Source: Pirellulaceae bacterium (lineage in GTDB: Bacteria > Planctomycetota > Planctomycetia > Pirellulales > Pirellulaceae). From it: DNA of 64,000 nt. The translations under genes and the position numbers were made by a program. The stretch is taken from contig JAWKTM010000007.1 of NCBI GenBank assembly GCA_041399085.1, positions 87,822 to 151,821 of the forward strand, written 5' to 3'. The notes under the pieces are model-generated. The model searched no databases. It had not been told where the DNA came from and worked only from the letters and a program-made list of their open reading frames with translations. Shown here one piece after another: positions 5,633-30,828 of this stretch (within the stretch, counting starts at the first letter, position 1; every line of letters begins with the position of its first letter).

Positions 5633-6553
5633 ATGTCCGAAACACTCGGCCGACGCGGCTTTCTTTCCGCTGGAATCGCTGCCGCTATCTCCGCACAATT
5701 AGCCGCGACGCACAACGAAGCTCGGGCGATCGAACCGATCGAGCGCAACGGCCAAGCGAAGTTCAAATACAGCTTGGCGGCCTACAGTTACCGCGGCCTG
5801 CTGCAAGGCAAGGCGGCCGAACTGACGATGCACGATTTCGTCAGCGACTGTGCGCGAATGGGGCTGGAAGGCACCGAGCTAACCTCGTACTACTTTCCGG
5901 CCGATGTCACGCCCGAGTACCTGCGCGACTTGAAGCGGCACTGTTTTCGGCTCGGACTGGACGTTTCCGGCACGGCGGTCGGCAACGACTTTGGACACGC
6001 CGATCCACAGAAGCTGCGCGAGCAAATCGAGCATGTGAAACACTGGGTCGACAACGCCGCGATCCTGGGCGCGCCGGTGATTCGGATCTTCGCCGGCCAT
6101 GTGCCGAAAGGCGGCTCGGCCGACGACACGCATCGCCAAATGGTGGCCGCGATCGACGAGTGTTGCGAATACGCGGGCCAGCACGGCGTGCATCTGGCGC
6201 TCGAGAATCACGGCGGTCCCACGGCGACGGCCGAAGGTTTGCTCCGCTTCGTCCACGATGTAAAAAGCCCTTGGTTCGGCGTCAATCTGGACGGCGGCAA
6301 TTTCCATACGGAGGACGTGTATGGCGACCTCGCCAAGGTCGCTCCCTACGCGTTGAACGTGCAGGTGAAAGTGGTCATCTCCGGCCCCGACAAGCAAAAG
6401 CAGCCCACCGATTACGCCCGCCTAGCCAAAATCCTGCGAGACGCCAACTACCGCGGCTACATCGTGCTGGAATACGAAGAATCCGGCGACCCACGCCAAG
6501 AATGCCCCAAATTCCTAGACGAAATCCGCACCGCATTCGAAGCATCGGCGTAA
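5633..6553 (+). CDS. Sugar phosphate isomerase/epimerase (xylose isomerase-like TIM barrel), Tat signal
   Basis: RRGFLSAG twin-arginine motif. TIM-barrel family signatures: HVKHWVDNAAILGAPVIRIFAG and HLALENHGG. Confidence 0.8.
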   Translation: MSETLGRRGFLSAGIAAAISAQLAATHNEARAIEPIERNGQAKFKYSLAAYSYRGLLQGKAAELTMHDFVSDCARMGLEGTELTSYYFPADVTPEYLRDLKRHCFRLGLDVSGTAVGNDFGHADPQKLREQIEHVKHWVDNAAILGAPVIRIFAGHVPKGGSADDTHRQMVAAIDECCEYAGQHGVHLALENHGGPTATAEGLLRFVHDVKSPWFGVNLDGGNFHTEDVYGDLAKVAPYALNVQVKVVISGPDKQKQPTDYARLAKILRDANYRGYIVLEYEESGDPRQECPKFLDEIRTAFEASA

Positions 6554-6801
6554 GGCCGAGATTAGCGAACGACTCCGTCCAATGATGGAAACAGGACTCG
6601 TAGGGCATGCTTCGCATGCCGCCCCTCGCGTTGGAATAAAACCCGCACGGGAGCACCAATTCACGGATTGGGTGGCACGCCCGGAATCTTCGACGGGCGT
6701 GACCCAGCCGCGATCGCCATCGCGCCAACCCCGCCGAAACGCCTGGCCCTTCGTTTCTCTCTCTGCGCTCTCCGCGGCTCCGCGTTTCCAAATCCTCGTT
6801 T

Positions 6802-24825: not shown

Positions 24826-24876
24826 GGATTACCAAAACCCGGTGTCACAAGTGCAAGTGACACCGGGTTTTTTCGT
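24826..24876 (+). terminator. Rho-independent terminator-like hairpin immediately upstream of the tRNA array
   Basis: CCCGGTGTCAC-AAGTGCAA-GTGACACCGGG followed by TTTTTT. Confidence 0.6.
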
Positions 24877-24892
24877 GCCCGGACGACAACTT

Positions 24893-24964
24893 GGGCTGGT
24901 AGCTGAGACGGTATAGCGGCGGTCTGAAGAACCGCAGACGAGGGTTCGAGCACCTCCCGGCCCA
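24893..24964 (+). tRNA. tRNA-Phe(GAA)
   Basis: Acceptor GGGCTGG/CCGGCCC; anticodon loop CTGAAGA; T-arm GAGGG-TTCGAGC. Confidence 0.8.
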
Positions 24965-24992
24965 CTTTGCGCTCAAAGAGCGCGCACAACAT

Positions 24993-25065
24993 GGCCCGTT
25001 CGACTTCGGGTGAGGTCATCGGTCTTTCAAGCCGAGTAGGTTGGGTTCGACTCCCACACGGGCTG
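24993..25065 (+). tRNA. tRNA-Glu(TTC)
   Basis: Acceptor GGCCCGT/ACGGGCT; anticodon loop CTTTCAA; T-loop TTCGACT. Confidence 0.8.
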
Positions 25066-25084
25066 CTTGAAAAAACAACACGAT

Positions 25085-25159
25085 CAGAACGTGGCGAAGC
25101 CTGGTTATCGCGCGTGGTCGGGGGCCACGAGATCGCAGGTTCAAATCCTGCCGTTCTGA
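25085..25159 (+). tRNA. tRNA-Pro(GGG), non-canonical C33
   Basis: Acceptor CAGAACG/CGTTCTG; anticodon arm CGTGG-TCGGGGG-CCACG; T-arm GCAGG-TTCAAAT-CCTGC. Confidence 0.65.
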
Positions 25160-25181
25160 CTGAACGAACAAAACAATTGAT

Positions 25182-25254
25182 CGGGCAGAGGTGCAGATGG
25201 AAGCACGCCTGCTTTGGGAGCAGGAGGGTCTCGGTTCGACTCCGAGGTGCCCGA
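25182..25254 (+). tRNA. tRNA-Pro(TGG)
   Basis: D-stem GTGC/GCAC; anticodon arm CCTGC-TTTGGGA-GCAGG; T-arm CTCGG-TTCGACT-CCGAG. Confidence 0.75.
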
Positions 25255-25264
25255 CTTGAAAAAC

Positions 25265-25336
25265 GGTAGTCGAGGGCTGGTTGCCCATACTCGGCTGATA
25301 ACCGAGTCGCGCTGAGTTCGATTCCCAGGACCACCA
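25265..25336 (+). tRNA. tRNA-Ile(GAT)-like, with A.C mismatches in the acceptor and T stems
   Basis: Anticodon arm CTCGG-CTGATAA-CCGAG; T-loop TTCGATT; atypical D-arm. Confidence 0.5.
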
Positions 25337-25407
25337 CTGAACGCGTAATGAACAGGAGAACAATGATGCACGCTGTCCGCTTGAAACGCATACACCAGAC
25401 CGATCAC

Positions 25408-25480
25408 AGGGTCGTGGTGTAACAGGCAGCACAGCAGACTTTTAATCTGCACGGTGTGGGTTCGATTCCCTCCGGCCCTA
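25408..25480 (+). tRNA. tRNA-Lys(TTT)
   Basis: Acceptor AGGGTCG/CGGCCCT; anticodon arm GCAGA-CTTTTAA-TCTGC; T-loop TTCGATT. Confidence 0.8.
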
Positions 25481-25485
25481 CTCGC

Positions 25486-25558
25486 TGGCGCGTAGCTCAG
25501 CGGTGAGAGCGGCGTCCTTATAAGACGCAGGTCGTGGGTTCAACTCCCATCGCGCCGA
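25486..25558 (+). tRNA. tRNA-Ile(TAT) (UAU anticodon, unusual for bacteria)
   Basis: TAGCTCAGCGGTGAGAGC D-arm; anticodon arm GCGTC-CTTATAA-GACGC; T-arm GTGGG-TTCAACT-CCCAT. Confidence 0.7.
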
Positions 25559-25574
25559 CTGAAGACAACAACAT

Positions 25575-25665
25575 GGGACTAAGGTGTTAGCGGCAGCCGA
25601 CCCGGAAGCCGGGTACCCCGCGGCTCTTAACCGGTGAGGTCAGGGTTCGAGCCCCTGTGGTCCTA
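25575..25665 (+). tRNA. 91-nt tRNA-like gene with canonical acceptor and T-arm but no resolvable anticodon arm
   Basis: Acceptor GGGACTA/TGGTCCT; T-arm CAGGG-TTCGAGC-CCCTG; internal hairpin CCCGG-AAG-CCGGG. Confidence 0.4.
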
Positions 25666-25679
25666 CTGACAATTTGCAA

Positions 25680-25751
25680 GCACTGGTCGTCTAGCGGCGA
25701 AGACTCCGCACCCGTAATGCGGCGACGTCGGTTCGAGTCCGGCCCGGTGCT
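25680..25751 (+). tRNA. tRNA-Thr(CGT), C33
   Basis: Acceptor GCACTGG/CCGGTGC; anticodon arm CCGCA-CCCGTAA-TGCGG; T-loop TTCGAGT. Confidence 0.75.
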
Positions 25752-25783
25752 CTGATGATCTTTGACAATTTGAAACGCAACAA

Positions 25784-25855
25784 GCGCCCATGATGTAAAG
25801 GCCAGCCTACTGCCTTGCCATGGCGGAAGTGCGGGTTCGATTCCCGCTGGGCGCT
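25784..25855 (+). tRNA. tRNA-Gly(GCC), weak D-arm
   Basis: Acceptor GCGCCCA/TGGGCGC; anticodon loop TTGCCAT; T-arm GCGGG-TTCGATT-CCCGC. Confidence 0.65.
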
Positions 25856-25863
25856 CTCAATAT

Positions 25864-25937
25864 CAGGGTGTGGGAAAGCCTGGCATTCCGCGTGCTTCGG
25901 GAGCACGAGATCGTTGGTTCAAATCCAACCATCCTGA
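25864..25937 (+). tRNA. tRNA-Pro(CGG)
   Basis: D-stem GGAA/TTCC; anticodon arm CGTGC-TTCGGGA-GCACG; T-arm GTTGG-TTCAAAT-CCAAC. Confidence 0.85.
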
Positions 25938-25946
25938 CTTAATGAT

Positions 25947-26021
25947 TGCGGTGGGTTCCGTGTTGGTACGGGTAGGCGGCTGTTAACCGCCCTGACGCAG
26001 GTTCGATTCCTGCCGCCGCAG
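25947..26021 (+). tRNA. tRNA-Asn(GTT)
   Basis: Anticodon arm GGCGG-CTGTTAA-CCGCC; T-arm GCAGG-TTCGATT-CCTGC; acceptor TGCGGTG/CGCCGCA. Confidence 0.75.
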
Positions 26022-26038
26022 CTTGTGAACATGAAAAC

Positions 26039-26122
26039 GGAAGGGCAAGCCAATTGGCGATGGCAGCCGCTTCGAAAGCGGTCGAGCGATGAGCCTTGAG
26101 GGTTCGACTCCCTCTCCTTCCG
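26039..26122 (+). tRNA. tRNA-Ser(CGA), class II
   Basis: Acceptor GGAAGGG/TCCTTCC; anticodon loop TTCGAAA; long variable arm; T-arm GAGGG-TTCGACT-CCCTC. Confidence 0.8.
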
Positions 26123-26138
26123 CTGAACGACAAACAAC

Positions 26139-26210
26139 GTGCTCTTGGCCGAGCGGCAAAGGCTCCAGGCTTCCAACCTGGCGAGGCGGGTTCGATTCCC
26201 GCAGAGCACT
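26139..26210 (+). tRNA. tRNA-Gly(TCC)
   Basis: Acceptor GTGCTCT/AGAGCAC; anticodon arm CCAGG-CTTCCAA-CCTGG; T-arm GCGGG-TTCGATT-CCCGC. Confidence 0.85.
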
Positions 26211-26222
26211 CTTCAGATTGAT

Positions 26223-26294
26223 GGGTCGGTAGCTCAGCGGCAGAGCAGGTGCCTGTTAAGTACCAGCGCGCGGGTTCGAGTCCCGCCCGTCCCT
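26223..26294 (+). tRNA. tRNA-Asn(GTT), second copy with a different sequence
   Basis: Anticodon arm GGTGC-CTGTTAA-GTACC; T-arm GCGGG-TTCGAGT-CCCGC; one acceptor mismatch. Confidence 0.7.
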
Positions 26295-26305
26295 CTGTGA
26301 AACGA

Positions 26306-26379
26306 TGCGGGGTAGTCGCTGCTGGTAGTGATGCCTGACTTTGAACCAGGAGGCGTAGGTTCGATTCCTACCCCCGCAG
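26306..26379 (+). tRNA. tRNA-Gln(TTG)
   Basis: Acceptor TGCGGGG/CCCCGCA; anticodon loop CTTTGAA; T-arm GTAGG-TTCGATT-CCTAC. Confidence 0.7.
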
Positions 26380-26433
26380 CTCGAGGCGAACCATGCACGA
26401 ACATGCGTGTCGTTTGAAACACACAACAACCAT

Positions 26434-26536
26434 TGCGGGACAGTCGCTGTTGGTAGTGACGCCTGGCTCCGGGCACCGATCGGCCATAAGGCCGGATTGG
26501 TCGTGGAGGCCGTTGGTTCGATTCCAACTCCCGCAG
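26434..26536 (+). tRNA. 103-nt tRNA-like gene: a paralogue of the Gln tRNA whose anticodon stem-loop is replaced by a ~50-nt insert containing a CGGCC-ATAA-GGCCG hairpin
   Basis: Acceptor TGCGGGA/TCCCGCA; D-arm nearly identical to 26306..26379; T-arm GTTGG-TTCGATT-CCAAC. No 5-bp/7-nt anticodon arm can be drawn. Confidence 0.4.
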
Positions 26537-26546
26537 CTCAAAGGAC

Positions 26547-26631
26547 GGAAGTCATCCGGCTGGATGAGGAGCCTGTTTTGAAAACAGGTGGCGACGCGAG
26601 TCGCTTGTGAGTTCGAGTCTCACGACTTCCG
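26547..26631 (+). tRNA. tRNA-Ser(TGA), class II
   Basis: Acceptor GGAAGTC/GACTTCC; anticodon arm CCTGT-TTTGAAA-ACAGG; variable hairpin GGCGAC-GCGA-GTCGCT; T-arm GTGAG-TTCGAGT-CTCAC. Confidence 0.85.
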
Positions 26632-26642
26632 CTCCGAAAGAT

Positions 26643-26713
26643 GGGCTCATCGTCCAACAGGAAGATGCTGGCGTCGCATGCCAGAGATTCGGGTGCAATT
26701 CCCGATGGGTCCA
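26643..26713 (+). tRNA. tRNA-Ala(CGC)-like (G3.U70 present), reduced D-arm, T-loop TGCAATT
   Basis: Acceptor GGGCTCA/TGGGTCC; anticodon arm CTGGC-GTCGCAT-GCCAG. Confidence 0.55.
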
Positions 26714-26722
26714 CTCAACAAC

Positions 26723-26795
26723 AGTCCTGTGGCCTAGCGGCGAAGGCAGCTCTCTTACAAGGAGCGGATCGGGGGTTCGAGTCCCTCCAGGACTA
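26723..26795 (+). tRNA. tRNA-Val(TAC)
   Basis: Acceptor AGTCCTG/CAGGACT; anticodon arm GCTCT-CTTACAA-GGAGC; T-loop TTCGAGT. Confidence 0.8.
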
Positions 26796-26810
26796 CTTCA
26801 GCAACACGAT

Positions 26811-26903
26811 GCCCAGATACGCCAATCGGCAGAGCGGTCCGGCTCGGGCACCGACCGAAGGTTGGTCGCCGGACGTTTGCAGGTTCGAGTCCTGCTCTGG
26901 GTA
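26811..26903 (+). tRNA. 93-nt tRNA-like gene whose central domain is a 7-bp stem (GTCCGGC/GCCGGAC) enclosing a 24-nt loop
   Basis: Acceptor GCCCAGA/TCTGGGT; T-arm GCAGG-TTCGAGT-CCTGC; no canonical anticodon arm. Confidence 0.4.
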
Positions 26904-26917
26904 CTGACAACACGCAT

Positions 26918-26991
26918 GGCTCGGTAGGCAATTGGCAGACCACTTTGGCTTAGAACCAGAGATGCTGCGGGTTCGAATCCCGCCTGAGCTA
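26918..26991 (+). tRNA. tRNA with Leu anticodon TAG on a short-variable-arm (class I) scaffold
   Basis: Anticodon arm TTTGG-CTTAGAA-CCAGA; T-arm GCGGG-TTCGAAT-CCCGC; discriminator A. Confidence 0.55.
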
Positions 26992-27000
26992 CTTTCATAC

Positions 27001-27073
27001 GTCCTCGTGGAGCAGCGGAGTGCTCGCCTGCCTGTCACGCAGGAGATCGTGGGTTCAAATCCCATCGGGGACG
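27001..27073 (+). tRNA. tRNA-Asp(GTC)
   Basis: D-stem GAGC/GCTC; anticodon arm CCTGC-CTGTCAC-GCAGG; T-arm GTGGG-TTCAAAT-CCCAT; discriminator G. Confidence 0.85.
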
Positions 27074-27079
27074 CTGAGA

Positions 27080-27131
27080 GTCGCCTTTCGCTCCGCGAAA
27101 GCAGCGCTACTTTCGCGGAGCGAAAGGCGAC
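27080..27131. repeat. Perfect 22-bp inverted repeat (GTCGCCTTTCGCTCCGCGAAAG / CTTTCGCGGAGCGAAAGGCGAC) with an 8-nt loop, lying between tRNAs
   Basis: Direct reading of the sequence. Confidence 0.8.
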
Positions 27132-27135
27132 AAAC

Positions 27136-27213
27136 GGCGCGGTACGCAAACCGGTAAAGCGGCGAAGCTCAAAACTTCGTGATCGTCTGTGAGTTCGACT
27201 CCCACCCGTGCTA
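27136..27213 (+). tRNA. tRNA with Leu anticodon CAA, class II-type D-arm but only a 9-nt variable region
   Basis: D-arm CGC-AAACCGGTAAA-GCG; anticodon arm CGAAG-CTCAAAA-CTTCG; T-loop TTCGACT; discriminator A. Confidence 0.6.
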
Positions 27214-27221
27214 CTGAGAGT

Positions 27222-27311
27222 CGTGAGGCGTGAGACTTGGGCATTGGCAGGCCCAAGTGGCTGTAACCCACCCGCTTTCGAGCTTTGCAGGTTCAACTCC
27301 TGCTCGGGCGC
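27222..27311 (+). tRNA. tRNA-Tyr(GTA)-like, class II, with unpaired acceptor stem (probable pseudo-tRNA)
   Basis: D-arm GGGC-ATTGGCAG-GCCC; anticodon GTGG-CTGTAAC-CCAC; 15-nt variable region; T-arm GCAGG-TTCAACT-CCTGC. Confidence 0.4.
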
Positions 27312-27403
27312 ACTGAAAGCATGGCCCTGTTCTTCCTACGGCAGGTGATGCGAGCCTCAAGCCTCCGCGATACGGGTTCAACTCTGTACGGGCTGGCCGA
27401 TAT

Positions 27404-27487
27404 GGCGAGGTGGCGGAACAGGTATACGCGCGCGACGTCAGAACGTCGTCCGCCGGGACATGCGAGTTCGAATCTCGCCTTCGCTAC
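27404..27487 (+). tRNA. tRNA-Leu(CAG), class II with long variable arm; anticodon loop only 6 nt (TCAGAA)
   Basis: Acceptor GGCGAGG/CTTCGCT; D-arm GCG-GAACAGGTATA-CGC (close to E. coli Leu); T-arm GCGAG-TTCGAAT-CTCGC; discriminator A. Confidence 0.7.
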
Positions 27488-27639
27488 TCGAAACACTGCA
27501 GGTGCGACAGGTGTCCAACTGACTTTCATACGGTCGGCGCTCGGCTCGATACCGAGACTCCGCAACTGCGGGTGGGCCAGTGCTCATCGGAGCCTCATGA
27601 GCCTGACTGCCGGGTGCGACCCCCGGACCCGCCACTTAC

Positions 27640-27716
27640 GGCCGAGTACGCAAACAGGCAAAGCGGTCACGTCGAGAGCGTGGCGATTTTGTGGGTTCGA
27701 TGCCCACCTTCGGCCT
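27640..27716 (+). tRNA. tRNA with Leu anticodon GAG, C33, short (8-nt) variable region
   Basis: Acceptor GGCCGAG/TTCGGCC; D-arm CGC-AAACAGGCAAA-GCG; anticodon arm CACG-TCGAGAG-CGTG; T-arm GTGGG-TTCGATG-CCCAC. Confidence 0.55.
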
Positions 27717-27725
27717 TCCACTGAC

Positions 27726-27794
27726 GATCTTGTCCAGCGCAGAAGACGCTCTGGGTGAACCAGGAGATCGATGGTTCGATTCCATCCGCGATCA
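27726..27794 (+). tRNA. Degenerate tRNA-like element (intact T-arm and acceptor, 5-nt anticodon loop)
   Basis: T-arm GATGG-TTCGATT-CCATC; acceptor GATCTTG/CGCGATC with one mismatch. Confidence 0.3.
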
Positions 27795-27892
27795 CTTATG
27801 AATTAATATTCGTAGGTGTTCCGGTAGCACGCGTCCGTGGTAAGGGACGGGAGATTGGGTTCGACTCCCGAACGGACCTCCTCTCAATGAAT

Positions 27893-27964
27893 GGGCTCAT
27901 GCTGATGGAGGCGACTGACCCTTGCAAGGTCGGTGCAGACTGGTTCGACCTGGATCAGGTCCAC
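27893..27964 (+). tRNA. tRNA-Ala(TGC)-like paralogue of 26643..26713, with degenerate T-arm
   Basis: Acceptor GGGCTCA; G3.U70; anticodon arm GACC-CTTGCAA-GGTC. Confidence 0.4.
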
Positions 27965-27979
27965 TTGATTCTGGGCTGA

Positions 27980-28046
27980 TGGTCCAACGGGGAAGACACC
28001 GCCCTGGCGTGGCGGAAATCCGGGCCCGAATTCCCGGTCGGTCCAC
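27980..28046 (+). tRNA. Degenerate tRNA-like element with Ala(GGC)-type anticodon arm
   Basis: CCGCC-CTGGCGT-GGCGG stem-loop plus a CCGGG...CCCGG T-arm-like hairpin; the acceptor cannot be paired. Confidence 0.3.
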
Positions 28047-28063
28047 TGACATTGAAAACATAC

Positions 28064-28147
28064 GGAAGGCAGTTGATATACCCGCCGGGCCGGTTTGCTA
28101 AACCGTGTGACTCCACAAGGTCATGTGGGTCAACCTGATGCCTTCCG
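28064..28147 (+). tRNA. tRNA-Ser(GCT)-like, class II, degenerate T-arm
   Basis: Acceptor GGAAGGC/GCCTTCC; anticodon arm CGGT-TTGCTAA-ACCG; variable hairpin TGAC...GTCA. Confidence 0.45.
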
Positions 28148-28159
28148 GGCTGATGGCCT

Positions 28160-28226
28160 GATGGTGAAATGGAAATCATATCTCGCTTCTAACGAGATGG
28201 TCCAGGTTCAACTCCTGGTCGAGCTT
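28160..28226 (+). tRNA. tRNA-Arg(TCT)-like with an unpaired acceptor
   Basis: Anticodon arm TCTCG-CTTCTAA-CGAGA; T-arm CCAGG-TTCAACT-CCTGG. Confidence 0.4.
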
Positions 28227-28248
28227 CTGATTGAAAACGGAAGGGCAA

Positions 28249-29170: not shown

Positions 29171-29720
29171 ATGGATCATGGTAGCGAAGATGCTCCAGTG
29201 CCCGGGCGCTGGTGCTGGAACCGCAACTGGCAGCCAGTGAACGTGGCCACGGTGTTGCGGGGCTGGTGCTGTTGTGGAACGAGTCCGCGCGGGTCGTCGA
29301 TCCAACGGACTACCAGCTTTACACCTGGGAGGATTGGTCGAAGTTGCGTCCGCGCGACGACGAGCGGTTCATCCAGGCGGTGAAGTTTCGCTGCGTGTGC
29401 CGGAAGTGATTACGCTCGCCGACTACGACCGGGTTGCCATCGGCGGCCGTCTCGTTCAGCCGTCGGAACATTTTCAAGCGTGACCATTACACGTGCCAGT
29501 ACTGCGGTCGGCAGCCCGGCAGCGAGGAACTGACGATCGACCACGTTGTGCCTGTGCTCAGGGCGAGTCGCGGTGGGATCAACTGCGTGCTGGATGGTTT
29601 GACGTGCAACCACCGCAAGGCCGACCGCACGCCACAGCAAGCCAAGCTGCGACTCCGCAACGAGCCAGCACAGCCGAAGTGGAACCTGCTTACACCGCGG
29701 CACGAAGTGCGAATGGAAAG
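29171..29720 (+). pseudogene. HNH endonuclease (classic ~170-aa HNH family) with at least three frameshifts
   Basis: MDHGSEDAPVPGRW.WNRNWQPVNVATV (frame A); LLWNESARVVDPTDYQLYTWEDWSKLRPR...AVKF (frame B); RVPEVITLADYDRVAIGGRLVQPS (frame C); then RRNIFKRDHYTCQYCGR...TIDHVVP...GLTCNHRKADRTP (CxxC...H-N-H motifs). Confidence 0.65.
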
Positions 29721-29823
29721 CTTCATCGAAGTTCGTCAGCGAGGCGTACTGGAACGTCGAGCTGGCGAAGTAATTGACAACGATCGCTCCCTGGTTCCAG
29801 TCGCCGGGAGTTTCTCACTCCAC

Positions 29824-29889
29824 GAGCGTGCTCCTGGGAGAAGCAGCCAGCCTCCAAAACTGGCGGACAGGGTTCGACTCTCGCGCTCT
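29824..29889 (+). other. tRNA-like remnant (acceptor GAGCGTG/CGCGCTC, TTCGACT loop, no proper T-stem)
   Basis: Direct reading; low confidence. Confidence 0.25.
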
Positions 29890-29899
29890 CATGCTTTGC

Positions 29900-30265
29900 G
29901 AGGCTTGAGGTGTGAGGCTTGAGGCTTGAGGGGCGTGTTTTCCTCGGTTTCCTCAGGTCTCAGGACTCAAGCCTCACTTACGCCCTGCGAGTGTGTGATT
30001 TTTTGGACGGCATGGCAGACTCTGGAATCTGCCGGACGAGGTTCGATTCCTCGATAAAGCGTGCTAGGCTTGAGGCGCGAGGCTTGAGACTTGAGGGAAG
30101 AACAGAGAACGATCCTTCCTCGAGCCTCAGGTCTTAAGTCTCAGGACTCATGAGTCGCCGGAGTGTGCCGGATTCGCACGCGAGCCCGCGAAGCTCGAAG
30201 ATCAGGTTCGATTCCTGGCGGCGACACTGAAGAGGCTTGAGGTGTGAGGCTTGAGACTTGAGGGA
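29900..30265. repeat. GAGGCTTGAG repeat family: three ~34-bp forward units (29900-29933, 30065-30097, 30232-30265) alternating with inverted units (29951-29976, 30115-30150), flanking a tRNA half-like module (30014-30052) and a tRNA-like gene
   Basis: Direct reading. The related motif GAGCCTCAAGCCTC also occurs inside the array at ~27345-27365. Confidence 0.7.
30154..30226 (+). tRNA. tRNA-Arg(GCG)-like, C33, embedded in GAGGCTTGAG repeats
   Basis: Perfect acceptor GTCGCCG/CGGCGAC; D-stem GTGT/GCAC; anticodon arm CGAGC-CCGCGAA-GCTCG; T-arm TCAGG-TTCGATT-CCTGG. Confidence 0.55.
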
Positions 30266-30267
30266 GG

Positions 30268-30828
30268 TTAGTTGTCGGGGCGTAACGACCGGATTAGGCC
30301 AACGAGGACGCGAGCGGTCTCGTCGGCCTGGCGGCTGAGATCGGTGGCGACATCGTCCGGCAGATAGCCGAGACGATGGGCGACGGATAGCTGGTACTCG
30401 ACTTCGCGGGCCGAGCCCAATGCTAGGTCGAGAAACCGAACGTAGTCTGCCTGCGTGCTACGAGCGCAGCCTTCGACGATGTTCGAGGCGATGGAAAGAG
30501 CGGCACGGTGCATCTGGGATGTAAGCCCGAACAGCTCTTCTTTCGGGAAGGACTTCGTCGCGGCGTAAACGGCCAGGACCAGCGCGTCAGCAAGCTCGAA
30601 CGCCCGGAGTTTTCGATGATCTCTCATGACGACATTTTCTTCCCGTCTCGTGGTCCTGGGCTTCACGACTCGGAACAATGACGCCAGAGCCAGACGGTGC
30701 AAGGCTGCCTCGGGCGAAGCCAGCGGTTCGACCTCGCCGGCGTCTCTTCCAAGCAAGGTTTCGATGTCGTCTGGACCAGCGGCGCCTCGATCCATCCATT
30801 CGGATTCGGGTCGGTGTGTTCCGGACAT
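30268..30828 (-). CDS. Four-helix-bundle protein (TIGR02436; 23S rRNA IVS-associated family)
   Basis: ELFGLTSQMHRAALSIASNIVEGCAR...DYVRFLDLALGSAREVEYQLSVAHRLGYL. Confidence 0.8.
   Translation of the reverse strand: MSGTHRPESEWMDRGAAGPDDIETLLGRDAGEVEPLASPEAALHRLALASLFRVVKPRTTRREENVVMRDHRKLRAFELADALVLAVYAATKSFPKEELFGLTSQMHRAALSIASNIVEGCARSTQADYVRFLDLALGSAREVEYQLSVAHRLGYLPDDVATDLSRQADETARVLVGLIRSLRPDN

Follow-up and report, generated by a model that had tools for sequence, protein, structure and literature searches.

A question raised by a 64,000-nucleotide stretch of a Pirellulaceae genome (GenBank assembly GCA_041399085.1, contig JAWKTM010000007.1, positions 87,822 to 151,821; the whole stretch is referred to below as the window) is what became of three tRNA-like genes, here called E1, E2 and E3, whose centres are enlarged. 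A first-pass annotation made from the letters alone had placed them correctly (Table 1) and had offered three readings of them: intron-containing tRNAs, tRNA-derived structured RNAs, or decayed copies. The explanation that we consider probable is that all three are genes of a long tRNA array (L-array), specifying Lys-CUU, Gln-CUG and a UAA-anticodon tRNA of class-I length, and that each was struck by a short dispersed DNA palindrome. The element itself is best read as a mini-palindrome resembling repetitive extragenic palindromes (REPs), for which tRNA arrays would act as hot spots or sinks.

E1, E2 and E3 are tRNA genes by descent and not by their present structure. Each has an acceptor stem of 7 bp, with two G-U pairs in E1 (GGGACTA/TGGTCCT), only Watson-Crick pairs in E2 (TGCGGGA/TCCCGCA) and one G-U pair in E3 (GCCCAGA/TCTGGGT), so that the perfect stems reported in the first-pass annotation are literally perfect in E2 alone; the T arms, with their GGTTCGA-type loops, are canonical in all three, just as it had said. 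Both of the structures that it described in the central regions are also present, namely a CGGCC-ATAA-GGCCG hairpin in E2 and, in E3, a 7-bp stem (GTCCGGC...GCCGGAC) that encloses 24 nucleotides (nt), which themselves hold the 7-bp hairpin ACCGACC-GAA-GGTTGGT. The acceptor and T arms notwithstanding, none of the three forms the canonical tRNA cloverleaf (RF00005), the anticodon loop being spoiled in E2 and E3 and the D stem in E1. The gene finder ARAGORN, run with its default settings, calls E3 alone of the three, as a Pro(cgg) of 94 nt, and needs its intron mode and lowered stringency for E1 and E2. An Rfam search and a folding check, both of which had been suggested for these genes, were carried out: E3 alone exceeds the gathering score of the tRNA family (40.3 bits; gathering score 29), E2 stays below threshold with 24.3 bits, on tRNA-Sec, and E1 obtains no Rfam score at all, while E2 (z = -4.4) and E3 (z = -2.8) fold better than shuffled controls and E1 (z = -0.4) does not. 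What places the tRNA character of the three beyond chance is orthology, since canonical tRNA genes orthologous to each differ from it essentially only by the insert.

The lesions were defined by pairwise alignment to the normal genes at the same slots of related arrays (L numbers denote loci and contigs), where the uninserted occupants are tRNA-Lys(CTT) at E1, tRNA-Gln(CTG) at E2 and a 74-nt tRNA with anticodon TAA at E3. Outside its insert, E1 is identical to the normal Lys(ctt) gene of L143, L163 and L222, the first of these being the array closest to that of the window (83% identity overall). The ATCCC lost from E1 made up the 3' end of the D stem, position 26 and the first bases of the anticodon stem, and the insert now sits between the D and anticodon stems. 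Despite its intact anticodon E1 is probably non-functional, because two D-stem pairs are gone and an extra hairpin stands at position 26. E2 does resemble the adjacent tRNA-Gln(TTG), of which it had been called a near-copy, but it is closer still to the Gln(ctg) of L129, with two substitutions outside the insert. The insert takes the place of TGAAC and the start of the following stem, and its closest variant, ACCGATCGGC-GAA-GCCGGTTGGT, is found in L143. A normal Gln(ctg) occupies the E2 slot in L001, L126, L129, L134, L154 and L202, and the inserted allele recurs in L139, L143, L144, L169, L222, L240 and L269.

E3 matches the Leu(taa) gene of L230 apart from nucleotides 34-38 (TAAAC), which are replaced by 24 nt, and it keeps C32, U33 and all five anticodon-stem pairs (TCCGG/CCGGA). 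Its uninserted orthologues lie in L134 (1499-1573), L154 (3181-3256) and L230 (2015-2089), and there are eleven inserted ones, that of the window included. Having lost nucleotides 34-38/39, E2 and E3 have no anticodon and cannot decode; at most, they would yield anticodon-less tRNA-like transcripts with a rod-shaped arm. The tRNA ancestry of E1-E3 is borne out by these alignments, and, the inserted repeat being scattered through related genomes as well, the three represent neither introns nor a new class of RNA. Decay, among the readings first offered, comes nearest to the truth, with the difference that these genes were disrupted by insertion and are intact in their remainder.

The first-pass annotation had missed that the inserts of E1, E2 and E3 are members of a single repeat family, the kinship being weaker for E1. 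The consensus is 5'-C GGGC ACC-(4-8 bp variable stem)-GNA loop-(stem)-GGT CG-3', usually 24-26 nt in length. Over 211 distinct copies the GGGC and ACC/GGT positions are essentially invariant, and the flanking bases are C at -1 in 88%, C at +1 in 98% and G at +2 in 77%. The four inner pairs of the stem differ between copies in a compensatory manner (AU, CG, UA and GC all occur at one pair), and pair 4 is usually G-T, a wobble that is possible on one strand only, the strand with GGGC. The loop is G-N-A closed by C-G, and this C-GNA-G apex is the classic DNA mini-hairpin of great stability, as in d(GCGAAGC). A covariance model of the element (R1), built from 25 variants and run with filters off on the whole 64-kb window, gave 41.9 bits (E = 2e-10) for the E3 insert and 25.6 bits (E = 2.4e-5) for the E2 insert, and no other significant match. 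The sequence of the E3 insert is also the commonest variant in metagenomes. Rfam scans, by gathering score and by E-value, returned no family for the insert, and the weak matches to tRNA-Sec, mascRNA and YrlA reflect tRNA-likeness only; nor did a full-text search of the literature find the sequence string of the element. A weak relative on the minus strand at 6602-6625, outside the array (GGGGC-GGCATGC-GAA-GCATGCC-CT; 13.4 bits, E = 0.14), is not significant.

The element is spread over species and over many tRNA sites. R1 detected 65 copies in 21 planctomycete array loci, 63 of them within the array spans (64 kb in all) and two in 83 kb of flanking DNA; the density of about one copy per kb in arrays thus stands against these two flanking copies and against none in 60 kb of the window, whose three copies all lie inside its 3.4-kb array. 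Forty-two of the 63 array copies are in sense and 21 in antisense orientation. Anticodon loops have been replaced in Leu-TAG, Leu-TAA, Gln-CTG, Ser-CGA, Gly-TCC, Pro-CGG and other tRNA bodies, and further copies are found in the D loops of Phe (sense) and Ser-TGA (antisense), after the T loop, and at position 26 of Lys; antisense copies just 5' of the T arm give the appearance of long variable arms. Each insertion takes the place of 4-7 nt of the target, or 5-6 nt in the three genes of the window, with a net gain of about 18-19 nt where an element of consensus size has entered a tRNA gene.

The same slots were compared between genomes. Filled and empty sites at Leu-TAA, Leu-TAG and Gln-CTG do not form nested patterns among genomes: in the window Leu-TAA and Gln-CTG are occupied and Leu-TAG is not, in L154 Leu-TAG alone is occupied, and L134 is empty at all three. 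Inserted alleles at Leu-TAG (GGCT|CGGGC..GGTCG|CAGG) are present in L129, L140, L143, L154, L163, L176 and L230. At the Lys-CTT site the window and L129 bear different palindromes at identical junctions. At the E3 slot the flanks in L143 are the same as in the window, but the stem between them is quite different. The stem variant tends to be common to the copies of one genome.

The element is not confined to arrays. A metagenome scan with the bare element, lacking any tRNA context, identified at least 120 contigs that carry it exactly, and 123 of the 135 copies among the matches listed lie outside arrays, which refutes the idea of an array-specific element. The enrichment in arrays is nonetheless strong, as they hold about 9% of the metagenome copies among the matches listed and constitute, by our own estimate, well under 0.1% of a genome. 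Copies are both genic (tRNA genes, reverse transcriptase, IS91) and intergenic, and those outside arrays occur at the apex of long palindromes, nested in other copies, in tandem (L260) and inside genes. Self-nesting, double as well as triple, is seen in L280 (~1400-1450), L281, L303, L331 and L346, and L323 has a nested copy within an E3-type tRNA gene. In two group II intron reverse transcriptases the element supplies eight codons (GPTFGRCP) in place of two, in frame, and a third carries GHRPKVGR, which corresponds to the opposite orientation; the net gain of about 18 nt in these coding sequences (about 24 nt for about 6) matches that at tRNA insertions. Judged by eye, a coding copy is also apparent near the YGWYSN motif of the IS91 transposase in four contigs (L286, L299, L308 and L318). 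Copy pairs are either in tandem, 54 nt apart, or inverted and at least 270 nt apart, and no typical doublets were seen among them. Complementary flanks of at least 7 bp surround 9% of copies compared with 2% of shuffled flank pairs, which weakly suggests a general preference for hairpin tips; the proposal that the element always inserts into hairpin loops holds only in part.

Two recurrent contexts were observed among the non-array copies. L251 (~5860-6000), L259 and at least nine other metagenome contigs share a long palindrome, AAAAGGGGACAGGTCCAATTTGTGCGAAGCC-element-CGCGGGCCGTTCCGGCAAATTGGACCTGTCCCCTTTT, whose arms measure about 26 bp and whose apex is always the element; it may be a composite repeat. 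The context ..AGCGAC-element-CGGGGAGCGGGTCGCCGCAACCGAGCGATAGCTCG.. recurs in L244 (~2230-2400), L353, L247 and L342 and looks like a conserved structured region, for which Rfam gave no match at the gathering threshold.

How might so small a palindrome have reached these sites? We infer that the element moves, or once moved, at the level of DNA and probably in the shape of a single-stranded hairpin, a form suggested by the C-GNA-G apex and by the G-T wobble that is kept on one strand only. It would have been moved in trans by an enzyme, for which a REP/RAYT-like HUH nuclease is the obvious candidate. Arrays may gather copies because the housekeeping set makes their genes redundant and because these genes offer many exposed hairpin loops.

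Several observations weigh against this account. No transposase or RAYT was found near the copies, and Y1_Tnp is not among the families with two or more members in a Pfam census of the 146 open reading frames (ORFs) within 1.5 kb of copies, in which the recurrent families were the group II intron reverse transcriptase, IS91 and IS66. The GTAG/CGTC tag of the described REP superfamilies is absent, the invariant unpaired foot being GGGC together with a 3' CG, and the substitution of 4-7 target nt is unlike the products of known transposition chemistries. The hairpin covariation is partly circular because copies were gathered by requiring a hairpin. The E1 insert received 10.1 bits (E = 1.6, whole window) from R1, a score that is statistically weak by itself, and for that reason its membership in the family rests on the GGG-ACC...GGT-CG frame and on context. 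Moreover, every anticodon-loop copy examined is in sense orientation, and the insert-bearing genes keep their acceptor and T stems paired, with some compensatory changes across genomes. These changes could reflect selection on the inserted RNAs, although as a counter-argument they are weak, the comparison having used a sample that was chosen for paired stems.

This last possibility leads to an alternative in which the sense anticodon-loop copies have been co-opted to make anticodon-less tRNA-like RNAs that display a conserved hairpin with a GGGC/CG junction. Such RNAs could engage a protein that binds or cleaves tRNAs, whether as its decoy or as its ligand, or could serve in the processing or regulation of the array transcript. 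The tRNA-derived structured RNAs proposed in the first-pass annotation would be possible for such copies, but nothing requires them. Consistent with co-option, 11 of 14 arrays have the insert at Leu-TAA despite an identity of only ~70-88%, with paired acceptor and T stems and the compensation just mentioned; the uniform orientation of the anticodon-loop copies, the retention of C32 and U33, and the G-U wobble on the GGGC strand point the same way. One third of the array copies are antisense, however, and most copies are not in tRNA genes at all. The differing stems at the same slot in different genomes and the nested double in L323 are what selfish turnover would be expected to leave, and the paired stems are explicable by reinsertion at hot spots, by recombination between arrays and by the choice of the sample. 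On balance we regard co-option as unlikely. A bolder proposal, somewhat less doubtful in our estimation, is that the 24-nt hairpin is an active 'nano-transposon' with an undescribed mechanism that swaps itself for 4-7 nt at exposed loop tips or short single-stranded stretches. It might for this reason prefer tRNA genes, group II introns, IS elements and other palindromes, and the anticodon-less RNAs might be kept for a role, for example as decoys of anticodon nucleases or as ligands of an array-encoded protein.

If the element were instead immobile, a single ancient insertion would have been spread by gene conversion or recombination, and the copies outside tRNA genes would be unrelated, convergent hairpins. 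The Gln-CTG, Leu-TAG and Leu-TAA targets do have similar anticodon stems of the GGCT(C)...C(C)AGG kind, and the shared stem variant within a genome would also fit, but the flanks are unrelated at the Phe D loop, the Ser D loop, the T loops, Pro, Gly-TCC and Ser-CGA. Since the non-tRNA copies are identical over 24 nt, unpaired flanks included, they are not convergent, and self-nesting and in-frame insertion in ORFs argue further for mobility, so that we hold this explanation to be decidedly improbable. The least credible reading is that the inserts are small introns or intervening sequences whose removal would give functional tRNAs. In its favour are the compact hairpins in or near the anticodon arm, the intact remainder of the tRNA bodies, and the fact that the intron mode of ARAGORN can be forced to model E1 and E2. 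With nucleotides 34-38 missing, no anticodon loop can be restored by excision, and removal of the hairpin leaves loops of the UCGGGCC type and of inconsistent length; the anticodon nucleotides are replaced not only in E2 and E3 but in every other anticodon-loop copy. The inserts are single hairpins of 23-34 nt, far below the ~200 nt or more and the P1-P9 core of a group I intron, and no Rfam intron family matched in the array. Nor do they form a bulge-helix-bulge (two 3-nt bulges on a 4-bp helix, usually at 37/38), as their junctions consist of an unpaired C-GGGC on the 5' side and CG on the 3' side of a 7-11 bp stem. In addition, the element is found in antisense orientation, at D, variable and T regions, within ORFs and between genes. 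For E2 and E3, whose anticodons are gone, splicing is effectively excluded, and it is implausible overall. The intron models that ARAGORN gives, Lys(ctt) and Arg(ccg) with 18 nt each, were rejected on the same alignments, the orthologues giving other boundaries and the ancestor of E2 being a Gln(CTG) gene. Likewise rejected were a Pro(CGG) tRNA with a long variable arm and a tRNA with the four-base anticodon CGGG, as CGGG belongs to the invariant part of the element in seven different tRNA bodies.

The locus that harbours E1-E3 lies on a Planctomycetota chromosome, of which the ~60% G+C and the genes for PSCyt2, PSD1, DUF7133 and BBP7 proteins are typical; none of the large ORFs of the window matched a phage gene family. 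The array comprises roughly 30 tRNA genes. ARAGORN reports 27, two of which lie downstream of 28227, and Rfam lists 21 tRNA hits; every one is on the plus strand. With about 26 ARAGORN genes plus the three insert-bearing ones within 3.4 kb, all on that strand, it has the hallmarks of an L-array (at least 20 tRNA genes, at least two per kb, one strand, most amino acids). Long tRNA arrays are known from several phyla, including Planctomycetes, and are HNH-linked in cyanobacteria (PMC4758250, PMC8421152). The first related array (L001, an IMG/VR contig with the same gene order) was found with the pattern CTC(C)GGGC-ACCGAYC...GRTTGGT-CG common to E2 and E3, and a looser version of it led to about 20 more, which belong to genomes of Pirellulales, Planctomycetaceae and Fuerstiella and lie on contigs as long as 2.8 Mb; early loose patterns gave mostly chance matches, which were filtered by script. 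The gene order is shared with at least 20 Planctomycetota loci.

Table 1. Positions of the array, its enlarged genes and their inserts in the window, and of reverse transcriptase genes carrying the element in metagenome contigs.
Feature	Position	Strand	Remarks
E1	25575..25665	+	tRNA-Lys(CTT) gene with insertion; anticodon loop CTCTTAA intact
E1 insert	25598..25620	-	23 nt in place of ATCCC; antisense, diverged copy GGGGT-ACCCGG-CTT-CCGGGT-CG
E2	26434..26536	+	tRNA-Gln(CTG) gene; anticodon destroyed by insertion
E2 insert	26470..26503	+	34-nt sense copy with lengthened, bulged stem, CGGGC-ACCGATCGGCC-ATAA-GGCCGGATTGGT-CG
E3	26811..26903	+	anticodon-TAA tRNA gene (nominally Leu, class-I length); anticodon destroyed by insertion
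E3 insert	26845..26868	+	24-nt sense consensus copy, CGGGC-ACCGACC-GAA-GGTTGGT-CG
L-array core	24893..28227	+	dense tRNA genes; further genes or remnants to ~30925
tRNA-Gln(TTG)	26306..26380	+	uninserted paralogue beside E2
tRNA-'Leu'(TAG)	26918..26992	+	site empty in the window, filled in other genomes
HNH endonuclease gene	29434..29922	+	within the array; Pfam HNH 24 bits; appears degraded
PF05635 gene	30268-30828	-	flanked by distal tRNA genes of the array; 23S rRNA intervening-sequence protein / bAvd-like four-helix bundle
SPFH gene			downstream of the array
Group II intron reverse transcriptase with element	L276, 87-1127		these three genes: two sites, both orientations
Group II intron reverse transcriptase with element	L284, 144-1796		
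Group II intron reverse transcriptase with element	L277, 430-1044		

The HNH gene of the window resembles the one linked to cyanobacterial L-arrays (PMC8421152). It is conserved in the related arrays, on the tRNA strand and in several of them in the gap between the His and Trp genes, and homologues in L134 (2774-3607) and L143 (6968-7639) score higher, at 49-58 bits; the copy in the window is shorter, and the adjoining His and Trp genes are missing or degenerate. A phage origin of the array was considered and rejected, as INPHARED contained no near match and the flanks consist of planctomycete chromosomal genes. L001 and L362 (IMGVR_UViG_3300007072_000340) present the related array in two places on a 94-kb contig that the IMG/VR classification lists as viral.

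Other features of the array deserve mention. The array tRNAs with Leu anticodons (TAG, CAA, GAG and TAA; 26918-26992, 27136-27214, 27640-27716 and, in L134, 1499-1573) are 74-79 nt long, and their amino-acid identity is uncertain because they lack the long variable arm expected of a bacterial tRNA-Leu. The gene at 27404-27487, which ARAGORN reports as tRNA-???(caga), is a normal Leu(cag) in L001, and its anticodon loop seems, by eye, to be one base short (TCAGAA instead of GTCAGAA); it is probably damaged, and the four-base anticodon call is therefore probably an artefact. The units at 27314-27403 and 27488-27639 are degenerate and tRNA-like and are not called by ARAGORN. Their orthologues in L001 and L134 bear the hairpin element in the anticodon region, and one copy among them in the window has GGTCGG, as in the 3' junction of the element, which hints at microhomology there. 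A perfect palindrome with arms of about 22 bp (GTCGCCTTTCGCTCCGCGAAAG...CTTTCGCGGAGCGAAAGGCGAC) lies at 27075-27135 between tRNA-Asp and tRNA-Leu(caa); it is missing from the same spacer of L001 and may be another inserted palindromic element. Directly upstream of the first array gene, at 24835-24876, a hairpin and a T run after it (AAACCCGGTGTCAC...GTGACACCGGGTTTTTT) resemble a terminator; they are conserved near-exactly in L001, and the homology of the arrays has its 5' limit here.

For annotation, it follows from the insertion alleles described here that oversized or 'four-base anticodon' tRNA calls in planctomycete arrays, such as the ARAGORN calls ???(cggg), Pro(cgg) and Gly(acc), are not to be read as suppressor, frameshift or intron-containing tRNAs. 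For the study of mobile DNA, the element represents a repeat family of very small size: time and again it replaces tRNA loops, with identical junctions, and it tolerates either orientation, nests in itself and enters proteins in frame. Because redundant tRNA arrays would be a sink in which the activity of the element is recorded, they may be well suited to deriving its target rules and to testing HUH nucleases as candidates. The kind of repeat is a known one, that of small dispersed palindromes, and the element offers a tractable system for an unexplained mechanism of insertion.

How the element relates to systems already described can be judged from several comparisons. The arrays are like the L-arrays of Santamaria-Gomez et al. 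(2021, PMC8421152) and Tran et al. (2016, PMC4758250): they have ~30-45 tRNA genes, all on the same strand, together with pseudogenes and an HNH gene. Hairpin insertions in tRNA genes are not described in these two papers. With tRNA introns the inserts share the presence of extra sequence in the anticodon arm of an otherwise normal tRNA gene, and they differ from group I and bulge-helix-bulge introns in size and structure, in the deletion of the anticodon, and in having copies outside tRNAs and in antisense. The cyanobacterial small dispersed repeats (SDRs) attributed to Elhai et al. in 2008 are reportedly 21-27 nt long, mobile-looking, in some cases hairpin-forming, nested in repeats and different between orthologous sites. 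They are of another sequence and another phylum and are not known to target the loops of tRNA genes. Rickettsia palindromic elements (RPEs) also occur in stable RNA genes. Like the element, RPEs, which are cited in PMC3733652, are selfish palindromes tolerated in frame within protein genes; unlike it, they are 100-150 bp long and restricted to Rickettsia, in contrast to ~24 nt and Planctomycetota.

A likeness also exists to REPs and REPINs, which RAYT HUH-Y1 nucleases mobilise. The element is a short palindrome of 24-34 nt with many dispersed copies (65 in array loci and at least 135 in metagenomes), and it shares with them an imperfect palindrome of 20-40 nt with a short conserved unpaired foot, the occurrence in both orientations, compensatory stem variation, and copies that lie in frame in ORFs or centrally within other palindromes. 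For REPs, both kinds of site, in ORFs and within other palindromes, have been documented (PMC3733652), and insertions of REPs that preserve the reading frame have been noted (PMC6006769). It differs from them in its foot (GGGC with 3' CG versus GTAG or CGTC), in its low copy density outside arrays, in the replacement of 4-7 target nt, and in having tRNA genes as major targets; in addition, the census of neighbouring ORFs showed no RAYT among its recurrent families, and the copy pairs seen included no close inverted doublets. Planctomycetes possess an unusual 'class 3' HUH-Y1 family that is associated with atypical hairpins, and the sequence of the element is not in the class 3 REP table of the same paper (PMC6006769). 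A further parallel lies in the Dada DNA transposons of eukaryotes, which target multicopy tRNA and snRNA genes (PMC3706591, PMC8869645). Although Dada elements are full-length autonomous animal transposons with a defined transposase, the hairpin of the planctomycete arrays may resemble them in being selfish DNA that uses redundant small-RNA genes as safe sites.

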